A stretch of DNA of 32,000 bases from Desulfocapsa sulfexigens DSM 10523 (GTDB lineage: Bacteria; Desulfobacterota; Desulfobulbia; Desulfobulbales; Desulfocapsaceae). Shown here one piece after another: positions 3,067 to 17,917 of this stretch (the stretch's first letter is position 1; each line of letters starts with the position of its first letter). Made by a program: the position numbers and the translations under genes. The DNA is taken from the NCBI RefSeq assembly GCF_000341395.1, contig NC_020304.1:810001-842000 (forward strand), read 5' to 3'. The notes under the pieces were generated by a model that was given only the letters and a program-made list of their open reading frames with translations, had not been told where the DNA came from and searched no databases.

Positions 3067-3095
3067 GGTTTTCTAATTCAGGCCATATATTATAA

Positions 3096-3109
3096 TTCAA
3101 GCGCTTGAA
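3096..3109 (+). terminator. Perfect 14-nt palindrome TTCAAGCGCTTGAA 30 nt after the pdsR-like stop, followed by a T-rich stretch; weak terminator or operator candidate
   Basis: The sequence is self-complementary by direct reading. ATTCTGTCTTATTTT follows it. Confidence 0.25.
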
Positions 3110-3399
3110 ATTCTGTCTTATTTTCCTCCGACCTCAGGTGTGAAATCTATTTTTTTCTGTTCGCTGTGTCCACTTGCCACCAAAACTCTGCAACCTTGAT
3201 TATTGACTCAATCTTTTTTTAATTACGTATATTCAGGAATAAGGTTAAATTCCAGTTTTGACAAATTGTTAAATATTACCAGTGCTCTCCTCTTACGGAA
3301 AGCGCAACTCTAAACTCTGCACAATGAGGTCCACTTGCATATTGGGAAGGCGGTTGTTATTATATTCTTACACGTAGCGAAGAGAACAGCTTTCAACTT

Positions 3400-3639
3400 A
3401 TGGAGAATATTATGGAACGTGTTGAACTGCCTTTGGCGGAGTACTCATTCGAACAAAAACTCGATCTGCTGGAAACTCTCTGGGATGACTTGGTAAAAAA
3501 TGATACTGTTTTTAAATCACCTGCTTGGCATGAGGAAATTCTCAAAGAACGTGAACAGGCTTTAAGTTCAGGGAAGATAAAGGTCTCTGACTGGGGAGAA
3601 GCTAAAAAAAGGATCAGAAGGAATGTTTCGTGCGGGTAG
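3400..3639 (+). CDS. Antitoxin, putative addiction module component (TIGR02574-like)
   Basis: The 79-aa product contains ..SFEQKLDLLETLWDDL.. and ..PAWHEEILKEREQAL... Its stop at 3637..3639 overlaps the GTG start of the downstream toxin gene. Confidence 0.7.
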   Translation: MENIMERVELPLAEYSFEQKLDLLETLWDDLVKNDTVFKSPAWHEEILKEREQALSSGKIKVSDWGEAKKRIRRNVSCG

Positions 3640-3926
3640 AAATTACAGACCTCGCTGAAAAGGACCTTGAACAAGGATATCTTTTTTATGAACAGCAACA
3701 GTTCGGACTTGGCACCTACTTCCTTGATGCACTTTACTCTGATATTGATTCCCTGTGTTTCTACGGCGGCATTCATTTAAAATTATGGGGATACCATCGC
3801 TTACTGTCCAAACATTTTCCTTTTGCCGTATATTACAGTGTGGCTGAAGACACTGTCCTCGTTATAGCGGTGCTTGATTGTCGTCGAAATCCAAGCTGGA
3901 TCAGGAAGAAATTAAAGGCACTATGA
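3630..3926 (+). CDS. RelE/ParE-family toxin
   Basis: The 98-aa product starts at a GTG that overlaps the antitoxin stop. Its N-terminus (VEITDLAEKDLEQGYLFYEQQ) and C-terminus (YYSVAEDTVLVIAVLDCRRNP) are typical of the family. Confidence 0.75.
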   Translation: MRVEITDLAEKDLEQGYLFYEQQQFGLGTYFLDALYSDIDSLCFYGGIHLKLWGYHRLLSKHFPFAVYYSVAEDTVLVIAVLDCRRNPSWIRKKLKAL

Positions 3927-4210
3927 CTTTGTTACAGGAGTGTTCGGCCAAACATCCTCCTGAAAAGCTTCTTCTCCTAAGGTGCAGTTTCACTTCGGTG
4001 ATTCTGTTTTTTCTGTTTCTCCCCTCTACAATCAATAGCCATTACTAAGGTCTTCCGTTTTACATAATTCTAAAACATTACATTGCTACTATATATACGT
4101 AATAACATACATACATAACGATCATACTTTATTATCAATAACTGTCAGATTAGGTGATTGCCGCTGCTCTGGGACCAACCGAATCTCCAAAAAGCTATAA
4201 AGTTCTTTGA

Positions 4211-4360
4211 TCAGTGATGTTTGATGCCTTGGCTGCAAGCCCTAAACATTTTATAAGACGTGGACAGATGGCACTCAAGTATAAAATTGGTATCTTAAAC
4301 TATTTTGCACATCGTACCACCATTGGTTCTGTCGAGGACATTCTCCATAAAATCAGTTAA
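4211..4360 (+). mobile_element. C-terminal remnant of an ISL3-like transposase gene
   Basis: The open frame reads ..FIRRGQMALKYKIGILNYFAHRTTIGSVEDILHKIS*. This matches the ISL3-family signature (..W..EILNYF.HR.TNG..EG.N.KIK..). Only about 50 codons survive, with no intact upstream transposase body. Confidence 0.4.
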
Positions 4361-4370
4361 CCGGATAAAC

Positions 4371-6449
4371 CTATTTTTTCCCTGAAAGAAATAGTTTTTC
4401 AGAGGACTTAAGAAGATTTTTCCTGCCAAAGAGAGTGACTATATCACCGGCAGCAAAAGATGTAGTACCATGGGGGATATGTAAAACTCCCTCTCTATCC
4501 AGTGAGACCACATTTATGGAACCTGGGAGGTGTAATTCTTTGATGTTTTTTCCAACTGCGTAAGCCCCTGCCTTCAAACGAAATTCTGTAAAATCATTGT
4601 ACTGCTCCCGTCGTAACGTAGTCTGTTCCTCAAGCAACTGACCCCGTTGTTTACGCACAATACCAACATCATAGGCCCTTAAAATATCACTACGACTTAT
4701 CAGCCCAAGGAGCTTGTTTTTTGATTTTCTTGAAACAACCGGTAATCTCGCAAGATCTCTTGGAGCCATCTTCTGAATAGCTGTATAGATAGGCTCATCT
4801 GAGAACACCGTCAATGGGTCAACCGTTGCAAGATCTTCAACCTTTAATGTTCGAAGATTCACAGCTTCCGCTGATAAAGCCCTTTCCATATCTTGGAGAG
4901 TAACGATTCCCCAAAGTTCATCATTCTCATCAAGCACTGGAAAGCCAAGAAGGTTTGTTTCCTGGAAACGCTGATACAGCTCTGCAAGGCTCTGATTCTT
5001 ATAAATGGTCAGTGGTGAGCGCAGCATGACCTCACGCACCTGTACCCCCTGCATGATATCCTTATCGCGTCCCTGGTCAAAACGTATGCCACGTTTTACG
5101 AGCTTCACCGTATAAATGGATTCCGGATGCAGATACTGGGCAAGATAGGTAGCAGTAACCGCGGTGAGCATAAGTGGCAGGATGAGTGCGTAATCATTGC
5201 TCATTTCAAAAACAATAAGCATTGCAGTCAGCGGAGCGCGGGCACAGGCAGCAAAAACTGCAGCCATACCGACAAGGGCATAGGCACCTGGAGGTCCTGC
5301 AAGCTCTGGCTGCCAGGCAAAAAAAAGTTCTCCCATGGCCCCACCAAGCATTGCGCCTATAAAAAGCGAAGGGGCAAAGACACCACCAGAGTTTCCAGAA
5401 CCAAGGGTCAAGGAGGTGGCAAGTGGCTTTAAGAGGACAAGAAGAGCCAAAATCCAGAAATCCGTACCGCCATGCAACACCTCTTCAATAAAAGTAAATC
5501 CCGGTCCATAAACATGGGGAATATTTTCAATAAGCGGCATTCCCAACTGGAATTCGGTGGGATTACTAAAACTGGTATTGGTAAAGTTAATATAGAAAAC
5601 ACCAAGCAATCCAAGAAACAGAGCACCAACAGCAGGTTTCCACAGGAGAGGAAAATTCCAGTTATCAAAAACATCCTCAAACCAGGACAGCATTCGAATA
5701 AATGCTACACCGACGAGTGCGGCAACCAAGCCAAGAAGCAGATAAAAGAAAATGGTCAGGGGTGATTCCATTGTGTAGGACGGCACAGTAAAAGCCGGCC
5801 GGTCACCAAGATACATCTGACTGACCACAGCGGCAGAAACTGCTGCAATAACCACATTGCCAAAGGCACGGACCTTCAATTCACACATCAATACTTCAAT
5901 GGCAAAGGCAACACCTGCAATGGGAGCATTAAAAGTAGCTGCTATTCCTGCGGCGGCTCCACAGGCCACAAGGTTTTTTATACGGTCATCAGAGAGATGA
6001 AGAATCTGACCAACCGACGATCCAAGGGTGGCGCCAACTTGAACAATAGGTCCTTCACGTCCGGCTGATCCTCCGGTTCCGATACAGAGTGCAGAGGCAA
6101 CTATCTTTGCAATTGCGACACGTGGTCGAATCCTGCCTCCACTCATAACGAGTGCCTGCATAACTTCCGGCACCCCGTGCCCCTTTGCTTCACGGGCAAA
6201 CCAGGCTATTACAGGTCCAGCCAGCAAAGCCCCGCCGATTGGCACCAGGGCATAACTCCAGATGCCAAGATGAGGGAAGAGGAAGTGGACTGTGGTATAG
6301 GATCTGTTCTGGATAATTGCAATAAGATGGATAAAAGCCACGGCCGCAAGCCCTGTGGAGCCACCAATAATAACAGAGAGAGTCAGCAGCAACAATCCTT
6401 CGGGAGGAGTTGTTTTATCAAGAAGTGCACCAAAAGGGTTACGTTTCAT
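4371..6449 (-). CDS. ClC-family chloride channel / H+-Cl- antiporter with a C-terminal CBS pair and TrkA-C domain
   Basis: The 692-aa product has the ClC selectivity motifs GHGVPEV, SAGREGPIVQ and GVFAPSLFIGA. It has many TM helices, two CBS-like segments, and a TrkA-C-like end (AVGKNIKELHLPGSINVVSLDREG..AGDIVTLFG). Confidence 0.9.
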   Translation of the reverse strand: MKRNPFGALLDKTTPPEGLLLLTLSVIIGGSTGLAAVAFIHLIAIIQNRSYTTVHFLFPHLGIWSYALVPIGGALLAGPVIAWFAREAKGHGVPEVMQALVMSGGRIRPRVAIAKIVASALCIGTGGSAGREGPIVQVGATLGSSVGQILHLSDDRIKNLVACGAAAGIAATFNAPIAGVAFAIEVLMCELKVRAFGNVVIAAVSAAVVSQMYLGDRPAFTVPSYTMESPLTIFFYLLLGLVAALVGVAFIRMLSWFEDVFDNWNFPLLWKPAVGALFLGLLGVFYINFTNTSFSNPTEFQLGMPLIENIPHVYGPGFTFIEEVLHGGTDFWILALLVLLKPLATSLTLGSGNSGGVFAPSLFIGAMLGGAMGELFFAWQPELAGPPGAYALVGMAAVFAACARAPLTAMLIVFEMSNDYALILPLMLTAVTATYLAQYLHPESIYTVKLVKRGIRFDQGRDKDIMQGVQVREVMLRSPLTIYKNQSLAELYQRFQETNLLGFPVLDENDELWGIVTLQDMERALSAEAVNLRTLKVEDLATVDPLTVFSDEPIYTAIQKMAPRDLARLPVVSRKSKNKLLGLISRSDILRAYDVGIVRKQRGQLLEEQTTLRREQYNDFTEFRLKAGAYAVGKNIKELHLPGSINVVSLDREGVLHIPHGTTSFAAGDIVTLFGRKNLLKSSEKLFLSGKK

Positions 6450-7116
6450 ACCACTTACTACCTTGCCTGGTAAATCTGGCCATGATGGCAGTTCATAGTT
6501 ACTACCTGGCCACTTTTCAGTTTCTCAATGGCACCCTTTACCCCTGTAATAACAGGAATATTTTTTTCCCGGCCAACAATTGCTGCATGCGATGTGAGCC
6601 CCGGTTGTTCGGTGATAATTCCAGCTGCGCCACTTAATTTGTCCAGCATATAATTATCGGTATAGCAGGCAACAAGAATATTCCCGACTTTAAATCCATC
6701 AAGGCTGTGGGGGTCTCCTATTACAGTGACCTCTGCCGTAACTGTTTCCTTGCCAATCCCCTGACCATGGAGGTTAATGTCTCCCACCTCATGGATCTTC
6801 AGCATATTGGTGGATCCACTTATTTTAAATGGAATGCCAGCAATAATAACAATGGTATCCCCCGATTTCATCAGATCACTTTCCATGGCACGAATGATTG
6901 CATCGTCAAAAAGCTTATTGACCGATTCTTCGTCGGAAACTTCCAGAGGTCTCACCCCCCAGAGTAACTGCATCTGCCTCCTCACTGATGCCTCCGGGCT
7001 TGTAGCGATTATGGCCGGCTGGGGACGATGACGAGCCACCATCCGGGCGGTCTGGCCACTCTGAGTTGCAGCAAGGATGGCATGTGCCTGCAAGTCACTG
7101 GCAATGGCACAGGCGG
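6420..7116. repeat. Direct repeat copy A (first 10 ClC codons + pyk-ClC spacer + last ~219 codons of pyk)
   Basis: I aligned it by eye to 10516..11218. I found nine substitutions (copy A positions 6438, 6466, 6704, 6712, 6717, 6728, 6914, 7010, 7034) and a 6-nt indel in the spacer. Homology stops sharply after AGGCGG (7116 / 11218). Confidence 0.95.
6458..7116 (-). pseudogene. Truncated 3' copy of the pyruvate kinase gene (C-terminal domain + PEP-utilizer swivel domain), with no N-terminal body and no credible start
   Basis: The translation matches residues ~363-581 of the full pyk at 10560..12305 except for three changes (IGDPH vs IEDTH, and QAR vs QTR at the C-terminus). Upstream of 7116 the sequence is unrelated. 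The only start in the ORF track is a TTG with no SD. Confidence 0.85.
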
Positions 7117-7142
7117 GAATTATAGTTGTCGCTGACCAGCGG

Positions 7143-7670
7143 TTATTTCGGGGCGTATTTGTAAAGTTTTCTCTGCAGGGTTCTCCTGTGGATGCCTAAC
7201 ATTTTGGAGGCGCAGCTGATATTGTTGTCGCAGTCCGCGAGCACCCGCTGGATATGTTCCCACTCCACCCTGGCCAGCGAAGGGGGCAGGATTTCCTCTT
7301 CGGGGTATTCCTGTTGCTGGTTGTCGTCGGAAAAGGCCTTGAGGATTTCGTCCAGATCAGCGGGTTTGGCCAGATAGGCGACTGCCCCCAGGCGGATGGC
7401 CTCAGTGGCCGTGGCAATGGAACCGTACCCGGTAAGCACGACGATGCGCAGTTCCGGGGCTATGGCCAGGGCATCTTTGATCAGGGACAGGCCGCTTTTT
7501 CCCGACATCTTCAGGTCGATGACGGCCATGGCGGGATGCTCCTGCTCAATGACGGACATGGCTTCATCGTAACAGCGGGCAGTGCAGGTGGTGTACCCCC
7601 TGCGGATAAATGCTTGATTCAATCGTTCCCTGAAGAAGTCTTCGTCATCAACCAGTAAAATCTTTTCCAT
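7143..7670 (-). CDS. regA: RegA/PrrA/ActR-family redox response regulator (REC + Fis-type HTH)
   Basis: The 175-aa product has a REC domain (LLVDDE, AVIDLKM, VLTGYGS, YLAKP). Its C-terminal HTH reads NISCASKMLGIHRRTLQRKL. The gene overlaps the upstream kinase gene by 23 nt. Confidence 0.8.
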   Translation of the reverse strand: MEKILLVDDEDFFRERLNQAFIRRGYTTCTARCYDEAMSVIEQEHPAMAVIDLKMSGKSGLSLIKDALAIAPELRIVVLTGYGSIATATEAIRLGAVAYLAKPADLDEILKAFSDDNQQQEYPEEEILPPSLARVEWEHIQRVLADCDNNISCASKMLGIHRRTLQRKLYKYAPK

Positions 7671-9060
7671 TTGTTCTCCCTGCTGTCTGCCTGCTGTTGC
7701 AGTTCTTCCTGGCCATATGCAGGGACAGGGTCAACGTAACCCTGGTGCCCTGATCCGGCAGCGGCTCTATGGAAAGGCCGCCGCCGAACTGTTCTGCCAT
7801 GCTCCTGGCAAGGAACAGGCCGAGGCCGAGCCCGGTATCCTTGGTGCTGAAGAAGGGGTTACTGGTTTGGGCTTCCAGTCTTTTTTCAATTCCAGTACCT
7901 CTATCACAGACTTCAATACCCAGATGTCCTGCATTGGTAAACCAGCGCAGGGTAACCTTCTCATGGGGGGGCGAGGCCTCGAGTCCGTTCTTCACCAGAC
8001 CCTTGATCGTCCGGCACAATGAACGGAAGGGCATGGCGATATTCAAATCTTCCGGTACTGTATCTATCCGGAGCCGCTTTCGCTCTTCTTCCCGGAGCTC
8101 GGTCAGGATCTGCTCCACCACCTGCTGGATCGAAAAACTCCTGATCTCTTCACCCAAATGCCCGCCGGCACCAGCTGTCATCTGATAGAGGATCTCCTTA
8201 CACTCCGTCACCTGCCTTCTGATCAGACGGGCATCGTCGAGGAGTTCGCCTCTGTCTCCCAGTTGTTCCAGGGTATGGATCATCTCACAGGAGATGACGG
8301 CCACCGTGCTGAGAGGGGTGGCAAGTTCGTGGGCAGCTCCGGCGGCAAAGGTGGCCAGGCCCGCCAGGCGCTCATGACGTTGCCGTTCCTTTTCCAGAGA
8401 TTGGATCTTGAGGCGGTTTTCAGTGAGAGCCCTCTGGATTTTACTGACAAAAAAGACCACGAACAGAGAGGTGACGACAAAGGCCCCTCCCATTCCCTTC
8501 AGGTGGAGTTGAAATGAGCCTGTGAGGATGTCGATCCGCTGCAGATCAGCAGGAGCCATGGCATTGGTGCTGGAAAGTTCGGAGATAAAAGCCGGCGGGA
8601 AGAAGAAGAGCAGGCTGTAGCAGGCCAAAGTGGTCGCGGTGATCAGCCAGGAGCACTTCTCCCTGAGAATGATGGCCCCGGTGACGATATGAATCAGGTA
8701 GAGAAATACAAAGGGATTCATGGCACCGCCGGTGACGTGCAGGAGTCCGGTGAGGAGGATGGTATCCATTAGAAGAATGACCAGAATTGTCTGGTTGGAA
8801 ATCGGGGCGTTGCGGTGCTGCCTGAGGTGAAGGTAAAGATTGCCGGCCACCTCAAAGAGGATTATGGCGGCAACCGGCAGGAGGGGGATATTAATGTGCA
8901 TTACCATCCAAACTGAGAAAATGAGAACAATCTGGCAAAGTACTGCGCCCCAACGCAGGGCCAGGAGCCAGGGAAGGGCTACGCTGACCTGTTCTGTCTG
9001 AGCCTGGCGGATGATGGGTTTGATATGGGAAAAGAGCATGGGTTTTTGAAAGGTACGCAT
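7648..9060 (-). CDS. regB: RegB/PrrB-type membrane redox sensor histidine kinase
   Basis: The 470-aa product has about six TM helices. It has GGAMNPF (RegB GGxxNPF quinone-site motif), the H-box HELATPLSTV, a Cys downstream of the H-box (RRQVTECKEILYQM), and an HATPase domain (GLGLGLFLARS). Confidence 0.75.
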   Translation of the reverse strand: MRTFQKPMLFSHIKPIIRQAQTEQVSVALPWLLALRWGAVLCQIVLIFSVWMVMHINIPLLPVAAIILFEVAGNLYLHLRQHRNAPISNQTILVILLMDTILLTGLLHVTGGAMNPFVFLYLIHIVTGAIILREKCSWLITATTLACYSLLFFFPPAFISELSSTNAMAPADLQRIDILTGSFQLHLKGMGGAFVVTSLFVVFFVSKIQRALTENRLKIQSLEKERQRHERLAGLATFAAGAAHELATPLSTVAVISCEMIHTLEQLGDRGELLDDARLIRRQVTECKEILYQMTAGAGGHLGEEIRSFSIQQVVEQILTELREEERKRLRIDTVPEDLNIAMPFRSLCRTIKGLVKNGLEASPPHEKVTLRWFTNAGHLGIEVCDRGTGIEKRLEAQTSNPFFSTKDTGLGLGLFLARSMAEQFGGGLSIEPLPDQGTRVTLTLSLHMARKNCNSRQTAGRTNGKDFTG

Positions 9061-9120
9061 TTATGGTTGCCTTCGTTCACAAAAGCTTCTGGGAAATTAT
9101 ACCACTTTCTGAAAGATGCG

Positions 9121-9165
9121 ACAATATGCCACATTGTGATATTCTCCTCCGTGGGTTACATGTAA
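9121..9165. promoter_or_regulatory. Two palindromes in the divergent regB / Tat-protein intergenic region: ACAATATG-C-CACATTGT (9121..9137) and TTACATGTAA (9156..9165)
   Basis: Both were read directly from the sequence. The first matches 7 of 8 per arm and the second is a perfect 10-mer. No known consensus is claimed. Confidence 0.25.
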
Positions 9166-9255
9166 ATTATCAGTGAAGTTTGATTGAGGGAGGCTGATCC
9201 TGATTTGCAGGTGTTGGTCGATAACTGTAAAAAGAAGATATGGAGGATAGTCATT

Positions 9256-10050
9256 ATGGAACATCAGAACAAACCCTGTCAAAGCCTGACCCGCCGTCAG
9301 ATGATGATCGGAACCGCGGGAGCACTTGCCGCAGGAACTGCCCTTGCACAGTTTGGGGGATTACTGAAATCCGCACACGCCGCAGGTGGATCGACTGAAA
9401 AATGGCCATGGCCCTACGAGAAACTCGATCCTGTCAAAACTGCGGAACTGGCCTATAAAGAATGGTATCGGGTTTTCTGCGGTGCGGCAGTAATCAACAG
9501 CGTTTTCAATCAATTGCAAGAAAAATTCGGAGAACCGTACACCTCTTTTCCCGATGATGCCTTTGTCTTTCTTGAGGGTGGTATGGTGGGCTGGGGCATG
9601 ACATGTGGCTCCAATGCCGGTGCGGCCATTGTTGCTAATGCGATCATAGGACCTAGAATCGCCGGAGGTAACGAAGGACACCAGATTACCGAGGATATCT
9701 TCGAATGGTATTCCGATGCCGCCATGCCGGTTTTTACGCCGAAAACCCCGAAAATCACCACTGAGCTGGTCAAGACCACCGCCGACTCCCCTCTGTGTCA
9801 CGTCTCTGTCGGCAAATGGATGAAGGCTTCCGGGTTTCACATCGGCAGCCCAGAGCGTAAAGACAGGTGTGCTCGGGTTGCAGCCAGTGTTGCCTACCAT
9901 CTTGTGGAGCTGCTCAACGATTGGCATGACAAAAAATACCAACCGACAGCCACCCATAAGCCAGTTAAGGAGTTTGGCATCACCGCTCAGATGAACTGCA
10001 TGGACTGTCACAGCGACGATGTGCCCACACCACCCATGGCCAAGAAATAA
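9256..10050 (+). CDS. Tat-exported Cys-rich redox protein (C_GCAxxG_C_C-like, reminiscent of split-Soret cytochrome c) with one C-terminal CxxCH heme c motif
   Basis: GGAGGA at 9242..9247 lies 8 nt before ATG 9256. The twin-arginine signal is LTRRQMMIGTAGALAAG..AHAAGG. Four spaced Cys occur (FCGAA, TCGSNAG, LCHV, RCAR), and CMDCH lies near the C-terminus. I think the track's longer start at 9184 is unlikely. Confidence 0.6.
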   Translation: MEHQNKPCQSLTRRQMMIGTAGALAAGTALAQFGGLLKSAHAAGGSTEKWPWPYEKLDPVKTAELAYKEWYRVFCGAAVINSVFNQLQEKFGEPYTSFPDDAFVFLEGGMVGWGMTCGSNAGAAIVANAIIGPRIAGGNEGHQITEDIFEWYSDAAMPVFTPKTPKITTELVKTTADSPLCHVSVGKWMKASGFHIGSPERKDRCARVAASVAYHLVELLNDWHDKKYQPTATHKPVKEFGITAQMNCMDCHSDDVPTPPMAKK

Positions 10051-10109
10051 CCATGGGGTGCTTGACCCATCGGAGTAAGGCGCTCTGAATAGCGTTTCCC
10101 CCTTCAAAA

Positions 10110-10157
10110 CCTTTGCCGTTGCTTCCCGTCTCTGTCAGCCGGGAGTGGCGGCAAAGG
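10110..10157. repeat. Long imperfect hairpin (CCTTTGCCG .. CGGCAAAGG with inner CTTCCCG/CGGGAG pairing); terminator-like or REP-like
   Basis: The inverted repeat was read directly. On the minus strand the stem is followed by TTTTGAAGG. There is no T-run on the plus strand. Confidence 0.3.
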
Positions 10158-10304
10158 CAAAGCGCCCTTCAGACTATTCACCTGAGTAGTTACCTTTTTT
10201 TTCTTTTAATAGACTCCCTTGACTGAGCGTTGCTTCCCGGTATCGGCAATCAGGACAATGTTCCCTTCGGCATCTGTAAGAAAAACGGCACTGAGAGTTG
10301 TTAC

Positions 10305-10529
10305 TCAGTAACGGTGTCGCGAATCAAAGAGTGTTTCATAATCCCACCCACCATAAAAAACATTTAGACCCCGTACCGTCAATTCTGCCTCATTCACAAG
10401 GAATGCAGCAACTGCTTTGTTATCAAGAGCATAAATTCCTAAACCATCCATCAGGTCAGCCCGTAATTGACCTCTTATTGGAAAAGTTTCCAGTTCCTGA
10501 TACTTGGATTTTAGTAAGAAGTGCACCAA
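10305..10529 (-). CDS. Hypothetical ORF, probably the 3' remnant of a gene truncated at the repeat junction
   Basis: The 74-aa ORF has a TTG start that lies inside repeat copy B, in a frame other than ClC. Unique sequence starts at the junction (..KSKYQELETFPIRGQLRADLMDG..YGGWDYETLFDSRHRY). I recognise no family. Confidence 0.25.
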   Translation of the reverse strand: MVHFLLKSKYQELETFPIRGQLRADLMDGLGIYALDNKAVAAFLVNEAELTVRGLNVFYGGWDYETLFDSRHRY

Positions 10530-10545
10530 AAGGATTACGTTTCAT
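10516..10545 (-). pseudogene. Orphan 5' remnant of the ClC gene (first 10 codons, MKRNPFGALL)
   Basis: It is identical in protein to the start of the ClC gene at 6449, with one synonymous change. It then diverges and hits a stop 20 codons later. Confidence 0.7.
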
Positions 10546-11218
10546 ACTGCCTGCTACTGCTACCTTGTCTGGTAAATCTGGCCATGATGGCAGTTCATAG
10601 TTACTACCTGGCCACTTTTCAGTTTCTCAATGGCACCCTTTACCCCTGTAATAACAGGAATATTTTTTTCCCGGCCAACAATTGCTGCATGCGATGTGAG
10701 CCCCGGTTGTTCGGTGATAATTCCAGCTGCGCCACTTAATTTGTCCAGCATATAATTATCGGTATAGCAGGCAACAAGAATATTCCCGACTTTAAATCCA
10801 TCAAGACTGTGGGTGTCTTCTATTACAGTAACCTCTGCCGTAACTGTTTCCTTGCCAATCCCCTGACCATGGAGGTTAATGTCTCCCACCTCATGGATCT
10901 TCAGCATATTGGTGGATCCACTTATTTTAAATGGAATGCCAGCAATAATAACAATGGTATCCCCCGATTTCATCAGATCACTTTCCATGGCACGAATGAT
11001 TGCATCGTCAAAAAGTTTATTGACCGATTCTTCGTCGGAAACTTCCAGAGGTCTCACCCCCCAGAGTAACTGCATCTGCCTCCTCACTGATGCCTCCGGG
11101 CTTGTAGCGATAATGGCCGGCTGGGGACGATGACGGGCCACCATCCGGGCGGTCTGGCCACTCTGAGTTGCAGCAAGGATGGCATGTGCCTGCAAGTCAC
11201 TGGCAATGGCACAGGCGG
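10516..11218. repeat. Direct repeat copy B (ClC 5' remnant + spacer + 3' part of the intact pyk)
   Basis: See copy A. The offset is 4096 nt left of the spacer indel and 4102 nt right of it. Confidence 0.95.
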
Positions 11219-12305
11219 CATAGCAGATAGCATTAGACACGGTTTGGGTCGAATACCTGGCACCTGCACTGAGCAGCTCATCGTAGGGAAGGGCAGATTC
11301 AGAAATTTCTGCATTTTTAACCAGGAAACGAACAGCCTCCAGAGGATATCCTCCAACCGCTGTTTCCCCAGACAACATCACTGCATCGGTCCCGTCAAAA
11401 ATAGCATTGGTCACATCACTGGCCTCTGCCCTGGTGGGCCTGGGACTGCCAATCATCGATTCCAGCATCTGGGTTGCGGTGATAACCGGTTTGCCATGAC
11501 GATTAGCCATCTGGATAATTTTCTTCTGAATAACCGGGACCTTCTCCGGTGGTAGTTCCACTCCGAGATCACCACGGGCCACCATCAGCCCATCAGACAA
11601 ATCAAGAATTTCTTCGAGATTGTCGAGTGCCTCCTGATTTTCAATCTTGGAAATAATCTGCTGCCTGCCTCCAACTTCTTCTATAACACGGCGGACTTCC
11701 AGAACATCTTCCCCCTTACGGATAAAGGAGGCTGCGATAAAGTCCACCTCCATCTCAGCCCCAAACTGAATATCCGAAACATCCTTATCCATCAATGGAG
11801 GTAAATTGACCTTGACCCCGGGCAGACTGACACGCTTATGCTCTCCCAGACGACCACCAACGACAACCTCGGTGCGGATATCATTTCCATGGAGACTTAA
11901 AACACGCAACGCCAGCTTACCATCATCGAGAAGAACGGTGTCGCCAATGTTCACATCATCGCAAAGGCCCTGATAATTCACGCCAATCCGCTCAGACGTT
12001 GCCGCAACTGTATCGATTGTCAAAAAGAATGTCTGTCCCTGCTGAAGCGTAATAAAACCTTCATCAATATCACTGGTTCGAATTTCAGGCCCCCGGGTAT
12101 CGAGAAGAATAGCGGTTTCACACCCAGCCCTGGCTCTAGCTGTCTTGATTGCAGCAATGAAGGCTGCCTGAGACTCGTGGTCTCCGTGAGAAAGATTGAC
12201 ACGAAAAACGTCCACCCCGGCCAGGATCAGCTCATGAATCTGCTCCACAGTATTACTAGCAGGCCCCAGCGTTGCTATAATTTTTGTTTTTCTCATTGTT
12301 TTCAC
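10560..12305 (-). CDS. pyk: Pyruvate kinase with a C-terminal PEP-utilizer (swivelling) domain
   Basis: The 581-aa product starts at a GTG. It contains KIIATLGPAS, MVARGDLGVE and the PK C-terminal domain, followed by an extra domain with TSHAAIVGREKNIPVITGV, as in Bacillus-type PK. Confidence 0.95.
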   Translation of the reverse strand: MKTMRKTKIIATLGPASNTVEQIHELILAGVDVFRVNLSHGDHESQAAFIAAIKTARARAGCETAILLDTRGPEIRTSDIDEGFITLQQGQTFFLTIDTVAATSERIGVNYQGLCDDVNIGDTVLLDDGKLALRVLSLHGNDIRTEVVVGGRLGEHKRVSLPGVKVNLPPLMDKDVSDIQFGAEMEVDFIAASFIRKGEDVLEVRRVIEEVGGRQQIISKIENQEALDNLEEILDLSDGLMVARGDLGVELPPEKVPVIQKKIIQMANRHGKPVITATQMLESMIGSPRPTRAEASDVTNAIFDGTDAVMLSGETAVGGYPLEAVRFLVKNAEISESALPYDELLSAGARYSTQTVSNAICYAACAIASDLQAHAILAATQSGQTARMVARHRPQPAIIATSPEASVRRQMQLLWGVRPLEVSDEESVNKLFDDAIIRAMESDLMKSGDTIVIIAGIPFKISGSTNMLKIHEVGDINLHGQGIGKETVTAEVTVIEDTHSLDGFKVGNILVACYTDNYMLDKLSGAAGIITEQPGLTSHAAIVGREKNIPVITGVKGAIEKLKSGQVVTMNCHHGQIYQTR

Positions 12306-12477
12306 CTGTTACTGTCGTATAGTTCCTCAACTATTTCACTGATAGCTCAACTTTCAGACTTGTGGTTATGGAGCAATCTGTTACATGAATAGTAACCATT
12401 ATACAATTAAACCAGGCTAAAGGCCAAAGGTGAAAAAAATTGATAAAAGCTATCGCCACACTCCCAGCTGAACAACT

Positions 12478-14670
12478 ATGCGCATTTCCCTTCGCCTGAA
12501 ACTTACACTTATTTCCCTGCTGCTCCTGCTGATCCCCCTGATCGGATTCAGGTTCAGCGCCATGCTGCAGTCAAGTCTCCTTGCCAGCCGGGAAGATGCC
12601 CTGATGTTCACAGCAAAAGCAGTGGCCACTGCTCTTGCCAATCGCCCGGATATCTTTGACCGTGAGCTATTCCACTCCCTCGATCAAAGTCGTGATCTCT
12701 ATCTTCTCCGTCTTTCAAGCTCCATCCGCCTCAATGGAAAAGTGGATGACTGGCAGCCTGAACTTGATCAGAGTGATACCTTTGGAATTGAGCACGTCCT
12801 CGCCACCACTTCGCCCTATAAGCCGGGATCTCTCACCTTTCGACATCTGGTCGGACAACGCGGGAAATACCTCTATGCTCTGTTTCTTGTCCATGATGAC
12901 AAGGTGAGGTACCGCCACAAAAACTCTCTCTACCCAGAAAAAGCTGATCATATTCAAATAGGAATACAAGATCCTGCAGGAGAACTTCACAGATACCTGC
13001 TGACCGCAGAGGAGCCTGGATGGGTCAACGGCTTTCAGATGGCAGCTGATCCGGAGAACCAGATCCCCATAGCGAACGAGCCACGCATTCAGGGTGTGTG
13101 GACAGAGACTGAGGATGGCTACATTGTTGAAATGCGCATTCCGCTGGATATGATTGGTAAACGACTGGCCTTTGCCGTGGCAGATGTGGATAATGCCGAG
13201 ACACTGGAGATAGAAACGCTCATCGGCACAGCAAATCCGGATCAAATCGGTGAACTGGGCTGGCTTCTTGCCCCGTCCCGTGATATCGAAGCCCTGCTAA
13301 AACGTCTTGACAGGCCGCATTCACGTATCAGAATTGTCGACAGCAACAGACGGGTTCGGGCCCGCTTTGGTAGCCTAGAAACCATAGCTCCCCCCGAATC
13401 TGACCAGGCCAGAGAGCAATCATCTCTGCTTAACTGGCTTCATCGCCAGCTCAGCCCGGTATATCGTCTTTTCACAGAACCCTTCACCACAACCTTCACC
13501 ACAGCAGGTTCCCAGGCAAAACAACTCGATATTATGGGGATAGAAGAAGGGCTCCTTGGTAAATCGAGCATTACACACTACCAGCTGGATGACGCCCAGG
13601 TGGAGGTGATGGCAGCTATCACACCATTAGTAGATGGAAATACAATTGTTGGAGCTGTGGTTGTAGAGCAGACAACCAATTCCATTCTGGCCTTAAAAAA
13701 TCGCATGATAGAAGAGTCCATCGGACTCACGGTAATGGCCTTTGTCATCATTGGACTTGGCCTGCTGTTTTTTGCCTCACGGATTTCGAGTCGCATCAGG
13801 CGACTACGCAATCAGGCGGCCAATGCCATCAGTGACGATGGACGAATTATCGCCGAGATTACCGCAGTGCGTGCAAAAGACGAAATCGGTGATCTTGCAC
13901 GAACTCTTTCCACCATGCTCGGTCAGCTTAAAGAACAGAACGAATACCGGGAAAACATGGCCGATAACCTCGAACACGAAATGCGCACCCCCCTGGCCGG
14001 TATTGCAGCTTCTCTGAAAAATATGGAGAAAGAGCTGACAAATCCCGACAAACAGCTGAAAGAATATATGGGCTGGGCCTTACGTGATGTCCAGCGCATG
14101 GAGTCCCTCCTCACTGCAATCCGGGATGCCACCAGCATCCAGGATGCTTTGGAACGTGATTTTCCAGAAGACTTTGACCTTGGGGCTGCCCTGGCGATCT
14201 GGGTCGAACATGGTTGGCAACCCGGATACCCCGACGTTGTTTTCAGGTATAATGTACCCGAACAGCCACTTTTTATTTATGGTGACCCGGACAGACTGCG
14301 GCAGATGATAGAAAAACTTATCGACAATGCGGTTTCTTTCCATATACCAGAAACACCTGTCGTACTCTCGCTCTCCAGTGATCAGGAAGGCATCAAGCTC
14401 AGTATCTGCAATCAGGGCCCGACCATTGCTCCGGAGATGCTGGGTCAGATCTTCAACTCCATGGTTTCCCTCCGTACCCGGAAGGATAGCAGCCCTCACC
14501 TCGGCCTCGGCTTATACATTGTCCGTACCATTGTAGAACACCATCATGGAACAATCCGGGTTGAAAATAGAACTGAGGGAAAAGGCGGTGTCTGTGTTAT
14601 TGTGAACCTGCCCCAAACACCAAAACCCGCAAAAGCAGATCATCAAGATGACTATCCTCTATCAAGATAA
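12478..14670 (+). CDS. pdsS: Sensor histidine kinase with a large periplasmic domain; by context the dedicated sortase system kinase (PdsS-like)
   Basis: The 730-aa product has TM1 (LISLLLLLIPLIGF), a ~400-aa periplasmic region and TM2 (LTVMAFVIIGLGLLFFA). It also has a HAMP domain, the H-box NLEHEMRTPLAGI, and an HATPase domain (DNAVSF, GLGLYIVRT). No response regulator is adjacent. It lies on the same strand as the orphan pdsR-like gene. The kinase call is firm (about 0.9); the PdsS assignment is about 0.5. Confidence 0.8.
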   Translation: MRISLRLKLTLISLLLLLIPLIGFRFSAMLQSSLLASREDALMFTAKAVATALANRPDIFDRELFHSLDQSRDLYLLRLSSSIRLNGKVDDWQPELDQSDTFGIEHVLATTSPYKPGSLTFRHLVGQRGKYLYALFLVHDDKVRYRHKNSLYPEKADHIQIGIQDPAGELHRYLLTAEEPGWVNGFQMAADPENQIPIANEPRIQGVWTETEDGYIVEMRIPLDMIGKRLAFAVADVDNAETLEIETLIGTANPDQIGELGWLLAPSRDIEALLKRLDRPHSRIRIVDSNRRVRARFGSLETIAPPESDQAREQSSLLNWLHRQLSPVYRLFTEPFTTTFTTAGSQAKQLDIMGIEEGLLGKSSITHYQLDDAQVEVMAAITPLVDGNTIVGAVVVEQTTNSILALKNRMIEESIGLTVMAFVIIGLGLLFFASRISSRIRRLRNQAANAISDDGRIIAEITAVRAKDEIGDLARTLSTMLGQLKEQNEYRENMADNLEHEMRTPLAGIAASLKNMEKELTNPDKQLKEYMGWALRDVQRMESLLTAIRDATSIQDALERDFPEDFDLGAALAIWVEHGWQPGYPDVVFRYNVPEQPLFIYGDPDRLRQMIEKLIDNAVSFHIPETPVVLSLSSDQEGIKLSICNQGPTIAPEMLGQIFNSMVSLRTRKDSSPHLGLGLYIVRTIVEHHHGTIRVENRTEGKGGVCVIVNLPQTPKPAKADHQDDYPLSR

Positions 14671-16177
14671 CAGATGGCTTGTAATTAACAAACCCTCCGG
14701 CATATCCACCCACAGGGCTCACCCCGGTGACCTTGGTATTGTGGAATGGCTGGACCTGCACCACAAACTGAAGGTGTATACCTGTTCACGGCTTGATAAG
14801 GGGACCAGCGGAGTGCTTCTCTTTGCTCTGGCTCCAGATGGTGTTGCCGAAGCGCAGAGTGTTCACGAGGACGAACGATCACGTAAAACCTATTACTTCA
14901 TAGCCGAAAAAACATCCCAGAGTTCCTGGTTCTGTGATGCCCCCCTCGACGGCAAGCCCTGCAGCACCCACTTCAGTACAGTCAGAGAAGGTGTCACCAG
15001 CGCTCTTTACAAAGCGGTTATCAATCGCGGCCGTACCCACCAGATCAGACGTCACGCGGCGTCATCGGGGATTCCCCTTCTTGGTGATCCCGAGTACAAG
15101 GGAGCAGACTTCGCCAGATTATCTCTCCACTGCGCGATGGTGGAATGGCCGGGAATTTCCCAGACACTGCACGCCCCCCTGCCACAGTGGTTTGAGTTCT
15201 GGCTGGATAGCAAACCACAGGAAGCAGGGTACCTCGCACTGGTCGAACAGCGCTATCCCTTCCTCTCTTCTGTTACCGATTGCTGCCGACTCCTGCATCG
15301 TGGTGAATATTCCAAAGATATCGCCATTGATAAGTACGGTGACTGGCTCTGCGCAACTGGCTACAGGGAAACGGTTCCGGCACGGCAGGTTCTGCAGGCA
15401 CACAAAGATCTGCTCACCACTCTCTGTGAAATCTGTAACTGCAAGGGCGGGGTGATAAAAACCAATCTGCGAGACCCCCATAAAAACAGACTTTTTGCGG
15501 ATATTGCCGCCTGGGGAGACCCCATTCCCGACTCTTTTCTGGTACGCGAACACGATCTTCACTTCAAGGTACAGTTAAACGACAGACAACACACAGGACT
15601 TTTCCTCGACCAGCGGGATTCCAGGAGCCGGATTGCAGAAATTGCCAAAGGAAAGCGAGTAGTAAATCTGTTTGCCTTCACCTGTTCCTTCTCTGTCTAT
15701 GCACTTGCCGCAGAGGCAGAAGTAGTATTTTCGGTGGATCTTGCCGCAGGATGTCTCAAACAGGGGCAGGAGAATGTTGCCATTAATCAACTGGCAGAAG
15801 CAGGAAATGCCAAATTCATAAAAGAAGACACCCGTAAATGGCTGTCCCGGCAGCTTCGTAACAAGCAAAATAATCCTCGCCAGTTTACTCCCTTTGATCT
15901 TGTAATCTGTGATCCTCCAGTATTTGCTTCCGGAGGCAGGGGAAAAAGCTTTCATGTGGAAAAAGAATGGCCTGGACTCGCAGATGGAGTAAGTAACATT
16001 CTCGCAAATGATGGCATAGCACTCTTTGCCAACAATCACCAGGGAGGTGCGGAACCCTTTTATTACGACACTCTACGCAAGGTTTTCAGTGAAGTCACCC
16101 GGTTAAATCCACCTTTGGATTTTCCACAGGTGGGGACGCGGACTTCTCATGTTAATATCTACTGGTGTCAAAAATAA
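14648..16177 (+). CDS. Fusion protein: RluA-family pseudouridine synthase (N-terminal) + RlmI/RlmK-like class I SAM-dependent RNA methyltransferase (C-terminal)
   Basis: The N-terminal ~190 aa contain WLVINKPSGISTH, SRLDKGTSGVLLFA (catalytic Asp motif) and GRTHQIRRH. The C-terminal ~300 aa contain TGLFLDQRDSR, VVNLFAFTCSFSV and DLVICDPPVFA. Confidence 0.8.
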   Translation: MTILYQDNRWLVINKPSGISTHRAHPGDLGIVEWLDLHHKLKVYTCSRLDKGTSGVLLFALAPDGVAEAQSVHEDERSRKTYYFIAEKTSQSSWFCDAPLDGKPCSTHFSTVREGVTSALYKAVINRGRTHQIRRHAASSGIPLLGDPEYKGADFARLSLHCAMVEWPGISQTLHAPLPQWFEFWLDSKPQEAGYLALVEQRYPFLSSVTDCCRLLHRGEYSKDIAIDKYGDWLCATGYRETVPARQVLQAHKDLLTTLCEICNCKGGVIKTNLRDPHKNRLFADIAAWGDPIPDSFLVREHDLHFKVQLNDRQHTGLFLDQRDSRSRIAEIAKGKRVVNLFAFTCSFSVYALAAEAEVVFSVDLAAGCLKQGQENVAINQLAEAGNAKFIKEDTRKWLSRQLRNKQNNPRQFTPFDLVICDPPVFASGGRGKSFHVEKEWPGLADGVSNILANDGIALFANNHQGGAEPFYYDTLRKVFSEVTRLNPPLDFPQVGTRTSHVNIYWCQK

Positions 16178-16291
16178 TATCAACCCTTGACTGAAAGGCG
16201 ATTATCCTGCTATTGCTTCAGAATAGACTTGTAAGTACCATTCCCCCTCAACTGAGTGTCAGTTCCCGGATCAAAGGATAGGAGAAGTGTC

Positions 16292-17164
16292 ATGATGAAC
16301 AGGATATTCGAACTGATCACCTGGATTTTTGACCCCCTTCATCATTTTTACGAGCACGAAAAAGTACACCGGAAGATTTCCTTTGTGCTGGTACTAATCT
16401 TTATCTCCGGCCTTCTGATAATAGAATTAAAACGTCGGCAACTCCTTCCGGCAGAGCTGGCTCCCATCATTCCTAAAAATCACTTCTATGCCATCAGCTG
16501 GGCATTTACGATGATTCTTGTCCTGGAGGTCATCAGCCTTATTTTCACCCTCCCCTGTTCGTTCTCACGCTCCGTTGGTAAACAGTTCGAGATTCTCTCT
16601 CTGATACTGATACGTAACGCCTTCAAGGAACTCTCCTATTTTCAGGAACCGGTAACATTTATCGGCAACGAAGAAAGTATTCTTCATATTTTATCAAACG
16701 GTTTTGGTGCTTTCCTGATCTTTGCCCTGCTGAGTGTCTATTACAAACTGCAGAAGGACAGCTATAACGAACGAGATCACATTGATAATATATTTAATTT
16801 TGTAGCCGCAAAAAAAGGTGTCGCCCTGGTATTACTTATCTCTTTTGCAGGCATGGGAGCGCATTCTTTTTATCTCACCACAGTTGGCATAGAGCATACA
16901 GATTTTTTTCATGGATTTTATACCCTGCTGATCATCACCGATATTTTAGTGGTGCTTATCGCCCAGTGTTTTCATCCGGCCTTTTATACAATTTTCCGCA
17001 ATTCAGGTTTTGCCCTTTCCACATTGATTATCCGTCTTGCTCTGGTTGCACCGGTTTATTTTGATGTCCTGCTTGGAGTAGCCGCCATTATCCTGGCCAT
17101 TTTACTTACGGTGATCAGTGGCAGGATGTTTCCAGGGCATGAATATTCGGAGATGAAAAACTAA
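16292..17164 (+). CDS. Hypothetical polytopic membrane protein
   Basis: GGAG at 16281..16284 lies 7 nt before ATG 16292, which I prefer over GTG 16256. The product has about 6-7 hydrophobic helices. I recognise no family. Confidence 0.65.
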   Translation: MMNRIFELITWIFDPLHHFYEHEKVHRKISFVLVLIFISGLLIIELKRRQLLPAELAPIIPKNHFYAISWAFTMILVLEVISLIFTLPCSFSRSVGKQFEILSLILIRNAFKELSYFQEPVTFIGNEESILHILSNGFGAFLIFALLSVYYKLQKDSYNERDHIDNIFNFVAAKKGVALVLLISFAGMGAHSFYLTTVGIEHTDFFHGFYTLLIITDILVVLIAQCFHPAFYTIFRNSGFALSTLIIRLALVAPVYFDVLLGVAAIILAILLTVISGRMFPGHEYSEMKN

Positions 17165-17181
17165 GGTTGTAAAAAAAAGTC

Positions 17182-17853: not shown

Positions 17854-17917
17854 TTCAATACCAATTACCTTCGCTTTTCACAAACGTGTCTTCAATAAAG
17901 ACGAACAAGTCAACAGA

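Follow-up and report, generated by a model that had tools for sequence, protein, structure and literature searches.

What lies between the pyruvate kinase gene pyk and the ClC-family channel gene of Desulfocapsa sulfexigens SB164P1? The window (i.e., the whole 32,000-nt stretch of DNA that was analyzed) contains exactly one internal repeat: self-BLASTN aligned 6413–7116 with 10509–11218 over 710 columns at 97.3% identity (E = 0). The seven outermost nucleotides at the ClC end (6413–6419 and 10509–10515) reflect no more than a similarity (TAAAA) of ClC to parE, so the homology limits are 6420–7116 (copy A) and 10516–11218 (copy B). The locus comprises the following features:

4371–6449, minus strand: intact ClC-family channel gene, 692 aa, with Voltage_CLC, two CBS, and TrkA_C domains
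6420–7116: copy A, with the last ~219 pyk codons, an 8-nt spacer, and ClC codons 1–10
6458–7116, minus strand: pyk′ stump, with part of PK_C plus the PEP-utilizers domain and lacking a start at the junction
7110–7116, minus strand: junction J1, the 7-nt microhomology CCGCCTG
7143–7670, minus strand: regA-like response regulator gene, with receiver and HTH_8 domains
7648–9060, minus strand: regB-like sensor histidine kinase gene, aligned full-length to NCBIfam ActS/PrrB/RegB with a score under the cut-off
9184–10050, plus strand: gene for a C_GCAxxG_C_C/split-Soret-cytochrome-like protein, with the twin-arginine leader TRRQMMIG and a C-terminal CMDCH motif
10171–10263: 93-nt stretch in the interval between the parE remnant and the cassette, missing in three same-species assemblies (L079, L162, and L163)
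10305–10515, minus strand: 5′-truncated parE toxin gene, with ~65 C-terminal codons left
10515–10516, minus strand: junction J2, ClC codon 10 (..CTTCTT) fused to parE codon ~38 (ACTAAAATCC..)
10516–11218: copy B, with the terminal (3′) part of the intact pyk, the longer spacer (14 nt), and a ClC stump of 10 codons
10560–12305, minus strand: intact pyruvate kinase gene pyk, 581 aa, with PK, PK_C, and PEP-utilizers domains

The collinear direct repeats of the original prediction are thus real, and the bounds it gave them coincide with the homology limits. Their content is also as it described—the ~219 pyk codons, short spacer, and 10 ClC codons in each—and copy A is indeed attached to an intact ClC gene, whose first 10 codons lie inside it, and copy B to an intact pyk. 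Thirteen substitutions and a single 6-nt indel separate the copies (98.1% identity without gap columns, 97.3% with them); the indel had been anticipated, whereas the predicted nine substitutions and 98.7% identity fell wide of these values. The pyk portion of each copy holds PK_C and PEP-utilizers domain sequence. The pyk′ stump, whose frame is still open (ORF 6458–7093), is probably a young pseudogene.

Cassette content and assembly

The 3.4-kb insert carries a 5′-truncated parE toxin gene, the gene for a Tat-exported C_GCAxxG_C_C/split-Soret-like protein, regB, and regA, which agrees with the predicted inventory (regA and regB, the Tat redox protein, and one gene remnant). The two-component proteins, a kinase and a regulator, align over their whole length with the NCBIfam models for the redox-responsive RegB/RegA systems (PrrB/PrrA, ActS/ActR) of Alphaproteobacteria. 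Inspection of the kinase translation by eye shows the motif GGAMNPF and the H-box AHELATPL, both typical of RegB. Unlike the alphaproteobacterial systems, however, this pair scores below the curated cut-offs (194 vs. 350 bits for the kinase and 176 vs. 250 bits for the regulator, the latter against ActR/PrrA/RegA), resides in a Desulfobulbales bacterium, and is always coupled with the C_GCAxxG_C_C gene, which is divergent from regB. The parE remnant is 82% identical to residues 40–104 of 104-aa ParE proteins and is followed by a terminator-like hairpin at 10310–10289. There is no terminator-like site between regA and ClC; thus, ClC may now receive read-through transcription from the regBA promoter. 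The predicted foreign look of the module is only mildly apparent in base composition (55% G+C for regBA, 46.6% for the window), and the regBA/GCAxxG cassette is common in Desulfocapsaceae. Domain annotation of the insert found no replication or integration gene, and no similar plasmid was found in PLSDB.

The SB164P1 chromosome (3,986,761 nt) is a finished sequence, built from 454 reads and fosmid ends with gaps closed by Sanger sequencing (PMC3739170). An independent Logan contig (L001, run SRR25712206) is 100% identical to window positions 7087–10598 and crosses both novel junctions unbranched, the cassette edges being single-copy in SB164P1. Each end of the contig lies exactly 30 nt beyond the final copy-specific base, which is where a k=31 graph would break if the genome has both copies. 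Together with the 13 substitutions and the indel, this contig supports the earlier argument that the repeat is no simple assembly duplication.

Strain distribution of the junctions and divergence of the copies

How are the two junctions distributed among relatives? In more distant Desulfocapsa genomes (L057/L085, L054/L086, and L052/L087/L138), an HK gene is divergent from pyk, which is followed by ClC at a single uninterrupted junction with a 4–9-nt spacer, so the proposed ancestral pyk–ClC adjacency is upheld. Within the species, three independent assemblies—L079 (a JGI 3300001419 contig), L162 (a 208-kb contig of NCBI GCA_975001335.1), and L163 (a Logan contig seen in four samples)—are 96.6–99% identical to the window and carry J2 and the cassette at the same spot, with J1 and copy A absent there. 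The relatives thus go half against the original prediction: regBA occurs here without the repeat in the same species, while pyk does stand beside ClC in the distant relatives.

J1 itself is a G+C-rich joint: CCGCCTG is common to the DNA 26–33 nt downstream of the regA stop and to pyk codon ~363; the sequence is TGCCGCCTG/TGCCATT on the pyk side and TTCCCGCCTG on the cassette side. All three sister assemblies leave the window exactly at J1, sharing ...TTCCCGCCTG and then continuing with ACGACCATGACC.... Beyond this point lies an IS3 transposase remnant (profile positions 266–369 of 369), followed in L079 and L162 by a CRISPR array; that of L162 has 84 repeats of 28 nt, spaced 60–61 nt apart, and is succeeded by csy4, csy3, and csy2 (type I-F CRISPR-cas). 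Because J2 and the cassette occur without J1 or copy A in three same-species assemblies, J2 appears to be older and J1 a separate illegitimate junction. This distribution does not support the original prediction as worded, with one event for both, whether Campbell-type integration or tandem duplication plus insertion.

The sister strains apparently lack ClC. No ClC 96–99% identical to that of the window was present in a 5.8-billion-protein set that included JGI, NCBI, and Logan proteins of these strains; the intact ClC junction is therefore likely to stem from another strain background. The earlier suggestion that one copy derives from a related strain is supported. Divergence of the window from L079 and L162 is 0.6–1.7% over 7117–11750 (regAB, GCAxxG, copy B, and mid-pyk), steps up from ~1% at about 11750 to 5.2–5.6% in the pyk 5′ end, and is 3.4–5.3% from 13751 to 17864. 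Between L079 and L162, divergence is just 0.2–1.25%.

At 11 of the 13 sites where the copies differ by substitution, L079 and L162 agree with copy B. By region, they have the copy A base at two of the three such sites in the 5′ third and the copy B base at all 10 in the 3′ part of the repeat. Five of the eight differences in the pyk part are synonymous and four cluster in a hypervariable interdomain linker (P ~0.01), a pattern closer to that of two functional alleles than to neutral pseudogene decay. Nearly all polarizable changes are derived on copy A, including three nonsynonymous ones (none in copy B).

Origin of the arrangement

On balance, we lean toward an origin in two steps, in which pyk3′–ClC′–parE′–cassette DNA was taken up into a strain with the wild-type pyk–ClC locus through a homologous crossover and an illegitimate one, much as in homology-facilitated illegitimate recombination (HFIR). 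In the older step, shared by SB164P1 and its sister strains, the illegitimate junction J2 would have fused ClC codon 10 to the middle of a parE gene with the GCAxxG–regB–regA cassette next to it, along with an IS3 remnant and type I-F CRISPR-cas genes. This order, pyk–ClC′(10 codons)–parE′–cassette–IS3 remnant–CRISPR-cas, is still present in the sister strains. In the second step, confined to the SB164P1 lineage, such DNA would have entered a strain of the same species with a wild-type pyk–ClC locus. The homologous crossover would lie within pyk (near window position 11750) or within the repeat, and the illegitimate one would have joined the CCGCCTG downstream of regA to that at recipient pyk codon ~363. 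Since this joint would lie upstream of the end of donor homology, the recipient's pyk 3′ end and ClC 5′ end would have been kept as copy A, the donor version of the repeat becoming copy B. The net outcome would be a 4.1-kb insertion with no host gene lost and both pyk and ClC intact.

If J1 was made from sister-type sequence, the sister strains necessarily part from the window exactly there; in the reverse order, J1 first, a later breakpoint would have had to hit those few nucleotides again. Uptake of the DNA in linear form would make this HFIR. Alternatively, the fragment could have circularized through CCGCCTG and integrated by one crossover in the repeat, and only as such a second step is Campbell integration possible; the two routes give the same product and are indistinguishable with present data. 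The layout of the locus, the sequences of J1 and J2, the occurrence of J2 without J1 among strains, and the divergence step are direct observations. From them we infer the direction of transfer and the mode of DNA entry (transformation or other), and likewise the recipient, of which copy A would be the allele: no same-species strain with a plain pyk–ClC junction and a copy-A-like allele was found.

Other observations also count against the two-step origin. Divergence is mosaic, with a patch of only 1.0–1.45% at 12306–13750; because this patch lies beyond the 5% patch, the left crossover cannot be uniquely placed. The difference between copies A and B (1.9%) is smaller than that of most of the flank (3.4–5.6%). 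Changes derived on copy A would also be expected from in situ duplication with relaxed selection on the stump.

Could the arrangement instead have arisen within one genome? Such a history, free of inter-strain transfer, is on the whole unlikely. A large tandem duplication, or insertion of an island with a long target duplication, would have made J2 and an ancestor with the order pyk–ClC′–parE′–cassette–IS3–CRISPR-cas–...–pyk–ClC, from which SB164P1 would later have lost the IS3 remnant through pyk codon ~363 by deletion at CCGCCTG. The final topology would be identical, J2 would likewise be older than J1 with the same J1 microhomology, and the three-to-none excess of nonsynonymous changes in copy A fits an in situ stump; this history also comes near the original prediction's option of tandem duplication plus insertion. 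However, it predicts a ~97–99% identical ClC in L079-like strains, of which the protein set contains none, it gives no account of ~1% divergence over 7117–11750 against 3.4–5.6% in most of the adjacent flank, and the duplication would have to exceed the ~10 kb that L162 shows past regA and be removed afterward.

Improbable, too, is a single-step Campbell integration of a preexisting 4.1-kb circle (repeat plus cassette), with the sister arrangement derived or unrelated. It would explain the direct repeats bracketing the insert, the empty site in relatives, and, through a reciprocal crossover in the repeat, the switch from copy A to copy B matches. Yet J2 occurs without J1 in three assemblies that break exactly at J1, so the circle's two junctions cannot both predate those strains, and the insert has no replication or integration gene and no similar plasmid in PLSDB.

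Still less credible is that the SB164P1 arrangement is ancestral, an IS3 element having entered J1 in the sister strains and an IS-mediated rearrangement having exchanged copy A and ClC for CRISPR-cas. IS3 ends begin with TG; the sequence TG/ACGACC.. at the breakpoint is compatible with an IS3-family terminus, and the remnant abuts the breakpoint in L079 and L162. Against this, an IS end would fall within the 7-nt microhomology by a chance of about 1 in 100 even when only the ~700-nt stump is taken as the target, and the step from 1% to 3.4–5.6% divergence is left unexplained.

A single template switch (MMBIR/FoSTeS-like) that copied the cassette from elsewhere in the genome, with microhomology at both ends and sister contigs that are assembly chimeras of inserted and source copies, is hardly probable either. 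Template switching is known to produce insertions flanked by duplications, and J1 has its 7-nt microhomology and J2 the weak TAAAA resemblance, but the same path appears in three assemblies from different pipelines (one on a 208-kb contig), the cassette edges are single-copy in SB164P1, and the 3.99-Mb contig has no full-length parE close to the remnant. Finally, an assembly artifact of the 2013 genome is very unlikely: the 0.7-kb repeat does exceed the 454 read length, but the copies are set apart by their substitutions and indel, finishing drew on fosmid ends and Sanger reads (PMC3739170), the Logan contig spans both junctions and breaks off where two copies would make it, and J2 recurs in three other assemblies.

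Comparison with known recombination processes

[quoted passage not shown] 2002, and Meier and Wackernagel 2003, summarized in PMC6382021). The two-step origin shares with it one crossover in homologous DNA adjoining a foreign segment, another end at a short G+C-rich microhomology (7 nt here), and no need for an integrase or transposase; moreover, a donor with contiguous anchor and cargo exists in L079-like strains. The SB164P1 locus differs as a natural, retrospective case read from sequence, with an illegitimate joint upstream of the anchor end, so that a 0.7-kb recipient segment would have been duplicated rather than deleted. Laboratory HFIR cases are mostly deletions of recipient DNA.

As in Campbell-type integration (i.e., the insertion-duplication of suicide plasmids and episomes), the homology ends up as direct repeats around the insert and both flanking genes can remain intact; the insert can also be lost by recombination between repeats, and RecA could excise it here. 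In contrast to that process, no circular replicon or integrative element was identified for the SB164P1 insert, J1 and J2 differ in strain distribution, and one junction (J1) is a microhomology joint. Breakpoints at a few identical bases and an insertion bracketed by a duplicated target segment also recall microhomology-mediated duplication/deletion and MMBIR/FoSTeS; here, however, the evidence points to two events apart in time and to DNA from another strain background, not to a replication accident in one genome. Overall, the locus adds one more case to a known process, a rearrangement neat in structure but not unusual in kind.

Repeat anatomy and the wild-type site

How is the repeat at pyk-ClC built, and what lies between its copies? 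Self-comparison of the window recovered a single internal repeat, pairing 6413-7116 with 10509-11218 over 710 aligned columns at 97.3% identity, which confirms the repeat described in the original prediction. Of this alignment, the 7 nt furthest out on the ClC side reflect only a chance likeness (TAAAA) of ClC to the gene fused to it; therefore, the real limits are 6420-7116 (copy A) and 10516-11218 (copy B), as first proposed. Inside these limits the copies are collinear and 98.1% identical excluding gap columns, separated by one 6-nt indel and by 13 substitutions, where nine had been counted before. On both sides of the insert the same homologous segment recurs in direct orientation, as Campbell-type integration expects.

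Gene order across the repeat-flanked insert, read in gene sense (minus strand unless stated)
10560-12305, minus strand: intact pyk, 581 aa, with PK, PK_C, and PEP-utilizers domains
minus strand: 14-nt spacer after intact pyk (copy B)
minus strand: ClC stump of 10 codons, after the 14-nt spacer
10515/10516, minus strand: junction J2
minus strand: gene remnant (parE), after J2
9184-10050, plus strand: C_GCAxxG_C_C (GCAxxG) protein gene
7648-9060, minus strand: regB-like kinase gene
7143-7670, minus strand: regA-like regulator gene
minus strand: 26 nt of unique DNA between the regA-like gene and J1
7110-7116, minus strand: junction J1
minus strand: pyk' stump, the last ~219 codons, after J1
minus strand: 8-nt spacer between the pyk' stump and intact ClC (copy A)
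4371-6449, minus strand: intact ClC gene, 692 aa

Four of the 13 substitutions fall within 6 nt of the spacer (6452-6457 in copy A versus 10552-10559 in copy B), just before the start of the functional ClC gene. In this cluster the derived state is that of copy A, and copy B has a private GTAGCA duplication; the changes may represent an event spanning several bases, or the ribosome-binding site of ClC may have been adjusted once separated from pyk. A 41-nt inverted repeat (7790-7830/14500-14540, 76% complementary) lies in two histidine-kinase genes on opposite strands and is probably a conserved-motif or chance match, not part of the structure.

The arrangement comes from the finished 3,986,761-nt chromosome of strain SB164P1 (DSM 10523), assembled from 454 Titanium reads, 40-kb fosmid ends, and Sanger gap closure (PMC3739170). 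A 3512-nt Logan contig (run SRR25712206) is 100% identical to window positions 7087-10598 and spans both J1 and J2. It ends exactly 30 nt past J1 and 30 nt past the last copy-B-specific base, as a k=31 de Bruijn graph predicts if both copies are present and the cassette edges are single-copy. Exact-sequence look-ups with the window's ClC and pyk matched no contig, probably because short-read contigs break within the repeat.

What does this site look like in relatives? Using ClC, we fetched 150 loci from genomes and metagenomes; the relevant ones are those with the closest ClC (88-95% amino acid identity) and enough upstream sequence. In these, pyk runs into ClC across one junction with a 4-9 nt spacer, between a divergent kinase (HK) gene upstream and a convergent response-regulator (RR) gene downstream, and no regBA genes occur within 10 kb. 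The single-copy, directly adjacent arrangement in L057/L085, L054/L086, and L052/L087/L138 bears out the predicted ancestral pyk-ClC adjacency and provides the empty site, with one copy of the segment, that Campbell-type integration calls for. Across the genus pyk is unstable at this site: among more distant Desulfocapsa genomes, L005, L008, and L017 have no pyk between the kinase gene and ClC, L007 has it downstream of ClC, and in L003 it is internally deleted (residues ~182-471 gone).

Two other features of the region can be recorded here. Between ClC and the response-regulator gene lies a 1.3-kb stretch of low G+C content (3067-4370, ~40%) with a toxin-antitoxin pair (Unstab_antitox, 3400-3639, and a weak ParE_toxin match, 3630-3926); in L052 the genes flanking that stretch are only ~80 nt apart. 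A VIT-domain open reading frame (1623-2204) and a VWA-domain one (26-1651) overlap in different frames and resemble a single VIT-VWA gene interrupted by a frameshift, which would be a pseudogene or else a homopolymer error of the 454 assembly.

Sister strains and the two junctions

Do other strains carry the same junctions? Through the closest RegB homologues we reached three sister assemblies: L079 (JGI 3300001419, a 97-kb contig), L162 (NCBI GCA_975001335.1, a 208-kb contig), and L163 (Logan SRR27205363, a contig seen in four samples). They are 96.6-99% identical to the window over 14 kb, from the topoisomerase gene to regA, and all three carry pyk, the 10-codon ClC stump, J2, the parE remnant, and the cassette, matching the window. 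All three then diverge from it exactly at J1, where the common ...TTCCCGCCTG is followed by ACGACCATGACCTGG..., the terminal part of a degenerate transposase gene of the IS3 family (matching profile positions 266-369 of 369); copy A is absent at this spot in each. J2 is common to the window and the sister strains and J1 is private to SB164P1, a distribution that leaves the single-event mechanism of the original prediction unsupported, even as its topology—a repeat-flanked insert at what is the wild-type pyk-ClC site of relatives—proved right.

The sister flank beyond regA (L162 11931-21392, L079 11952-14259) holds the IS3 remnant, then a fragment resembling another IS transposase (no Pfam or NCBIfam match), then an array. 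This type I-F-style CRISPR array, missed by Tandem Repeats Finder and found by a pattern count, has 28-nt repeats at a period of 60-61 nt, with 24 repeats to the contig end in L079 and 84 in L162, where RhuM, CopG, csy4, csy3, and csy2 follow. For SB164P1 one CRISPR array is reported, outside this window (PMC3739170). No protein of the SB164P1 chromosome clusters with the IS3-remnant open reading frame of L079, a weak indication that SB164P1 lacks this flank. No ClC 96-99% identical to the window's was found in a collection of 5.8 billion proteins in which other proteins of the sister assemblies are present; the sister strains therefore probably lack ClC. A metagenome scan with ClC gave no locus above 95% identity. 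A 2-kb window segment (17865-19889) with a 610-aa DUF3413 + Sulfatase gene (17918-19750) is absent from all three sister assemblies; in their alignments, 17864 is followed directly by 19890.

How was J1 formed? The pyk sequence at the start of copy A reads TGCCGCCTG followed by TGCCATT, and the cassette flank reads TTCCCGCCTG; compared, they thus place a 7-nt, G+C-rich microhomology at J1. If J1 was made from sister-type sequence, the window and the sister strains must diverge exactly there, as observed. The opposite order, in which an IS inserted after J1 had already formed, has a low probability, as it requires the later IS to land on the same few nucleotides.

We then compared the window with L079 and L162, which are themselves 0.2-1.25% apart throughout.

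Substitution divergence of the window from L079/L162, by segment
7117-11750 (regAB, GCAxxG, copy B, mid-pyk): 0.6-1.7%
pyk 5' end: 5.2-5.6%
12306-13750: 1.0-1.45%
13751-17864: 3.4-5.3%

By this segmental pattern, sister-strain-like sequence takes in the cassette together with the 3' two-thirds of pyk next to it, within a more diverged chromosome. The candidate anchor tract—a homologous tract of donor type adjoining the cargo—runs at low divergence from J1 to ~11750, but the second low patch at 12306-13750 leaves its boundary ambiguous. Copy B equals L079/L162 at 11 of the 13 sites at which A and B differ by substitution. In the pyk part, five of eight differences are synonymous, and four cluster in 25 nt of the variable linker that joins PK_C to PEP-utilizers (P ~0.01, permutation). 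On these small numbers the pattern looks more like two functional alleles than random pseudogene decay. The copies could also have diverged in situ: nearly all polarisable changes fall on copy A, at few sites, and in-situ divergence is therefore possible.

Candidate recombination mechanisms

Which class of recombination fits these observations? The simplest account would be that sister-type DNA (pyk...ClC'-parE'-cassette-CCCGCCTG...) recombined with a conspecific wild-type pyk-ClC locus through one homologous plus one illegitimate exchange. Such an exchange, with its illegitimate joint at a short microhomology, matches homology-facilitated illegitimate recombination (HFIR), which is described in A. 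baylyi, P. stutzeri, and S. pneumoniae as RecA-dependent, with joints at 3-10 bp (PMC6382021). The J1 microhomology, CCGCCTG, common to the cassette flank and pyk codon ~363, falls within that range, and the donor-type arrangement with anchor and cargo contiguous (pyk-ClC'-parE'-cassette) is present in L079, L162, and L163. In one respect the case differs from HFIR: the illegitimate joint lies upstream of the anchor end, and the recipient segment was therefore duplicated, not deleted.

Campbell integration, as originally predicted, survives in one form. A donor fragment circularised via the J1 microhomology, followed by a single crossover in the repeat, would give the identical product and is possible. 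The two 5'-most sites of agreement between copy A and the sister strains could reflect a crossover within the repeat or, equally well, two synonymous changes private to copy B. The form in which both junctions pre-existed together on one circle is not supported, since L079, L162, and L163 have J2 but neither J1 nor copy A. None of 72,556 plasmids (PLSDB) matched the insert by BLASTN, and a domain search of the insert gave no replication or integration gene. An integrase-mediated island or prophage fits poorly: the repeats are 0.7 kb of coding DNA, not short att repeats, the insert has no integrase domain, and scans of the window with Rfam and for tRNA genes came back empty. A composite transposon or IS insertion also fits poorly, as the insert in the window is without an IS and the degenerate IS3 remnant is found only in the sister strains, on one side. 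The exchange proposed here, one homologous and one illegitimate, makes this a natural, well-documented, strain-level example of a known recombination class and no new mechanism.

Cargo, cassette distribution, and consequences

What does the insert carry? The regB-like kinase aligns end to end with NCBIfam ActS/PrrB/RegB (194 bits versus a curated cut-off of 350) and the regA-like regulator with ActR/PrrA/RegA (176 bits versus 250); because the alignments are full-length and the scores below cut-off, RegBA-like is the safe name. The G+C content of regBA is 55%, against 46.6% for the window. The plus-strand protein has a twin-arginine leader and a C-terminal CMDCH motif, both read from the translation, and matches C_GCAxxG_C_C (Pfam) and, under the cut-off, split-Soret cytochrome c (NCBIfam, E = 4e-39). 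The gene remnant is the 3' two-thirds of a parE toxin gene, its 65 codons 82% identical to residues 40-104 of 104-aa ParE proteins, with a terminator-like hairpin on its 3' side (10310-10289). ParE homologues (~80% identical) occupy ordinary parDE pairs in unrelated contexts and did not reveal the source of the cassette; the ParE-like toxin at 3630-3926 has no significant similarity to the remnant and was dismissed as its origin. Between the remnant and the cassette lies a 93-nt stretch (10171-10263) that none of the three sister assemblies has; a short open frame (..LSAVFLTDAEGNIVLIADTGKQRSVKGVY, then a stop) extends into it and may be another gene fragment.

The three-gene cassette was present in every Desulfocapsaceae relative examined, in a different neighbourhood each time.

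Neighbourhoods of the three-gene cassette
DAHP synthase + PagL: L080 (8989-11900), L158 (5701-8901), L159
rve fragment + DsbD: L081 (8822-11894), L082-L084
within a flagellar gene cluster: L160 (5819-8897), L161
pyk-ClC: window, 7143-10050

Mobile-element genes (rve, RVT_1, Y1_Tnp) are often near the cassette, which has no mobility gene of its own.

How might the insert affect its neighbours? Promoter-like sites lie directly upstream of regB (9124-9096 and 9282-9253), and no terminator-like site was seen on the coding strand between regA and ClC; to judge only from that lack, ClC may now be read through from regBA. Transcripts of pyk would be predicted to reach the hairpin that lies past the parE remnant. 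RecA should be able to act on the 0.7-kb repeats; crossing over between the two would regenerate the wild-type site and free a 4.1-kb circle. It seems very unlikely, though, that the cassette is a self-excising unit without an integrase, released by RecA as a 4.1-kb circle with its own homology arm and re-integrating after uptake by a single crossover at pyk-ClC of any conspecific strain. Were this so, a regulatory cassette would spread through a population on homology alone, which might help explain its different neighbourhood in every Desulfocapsaceae lineage examined.

Laboratory work has established that bacteria can acquire foreign genes with one-sided homology; to our knowledge, it is uncommon for a natural case to allow product, wild-type site, and donor-type arrangement all to be identified. 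For this insert, environmental strains still carry what is likely the donor-type arrangement, and the product stands in a finished type-strain genome, so the event is readable base by base. Its practical weight is modest. The type strain acquired a RegBA-like redox sensor plus a putative Tat-exported haem protein and kept both pyk and ClC, with flanking repeats that could delete the insert again.
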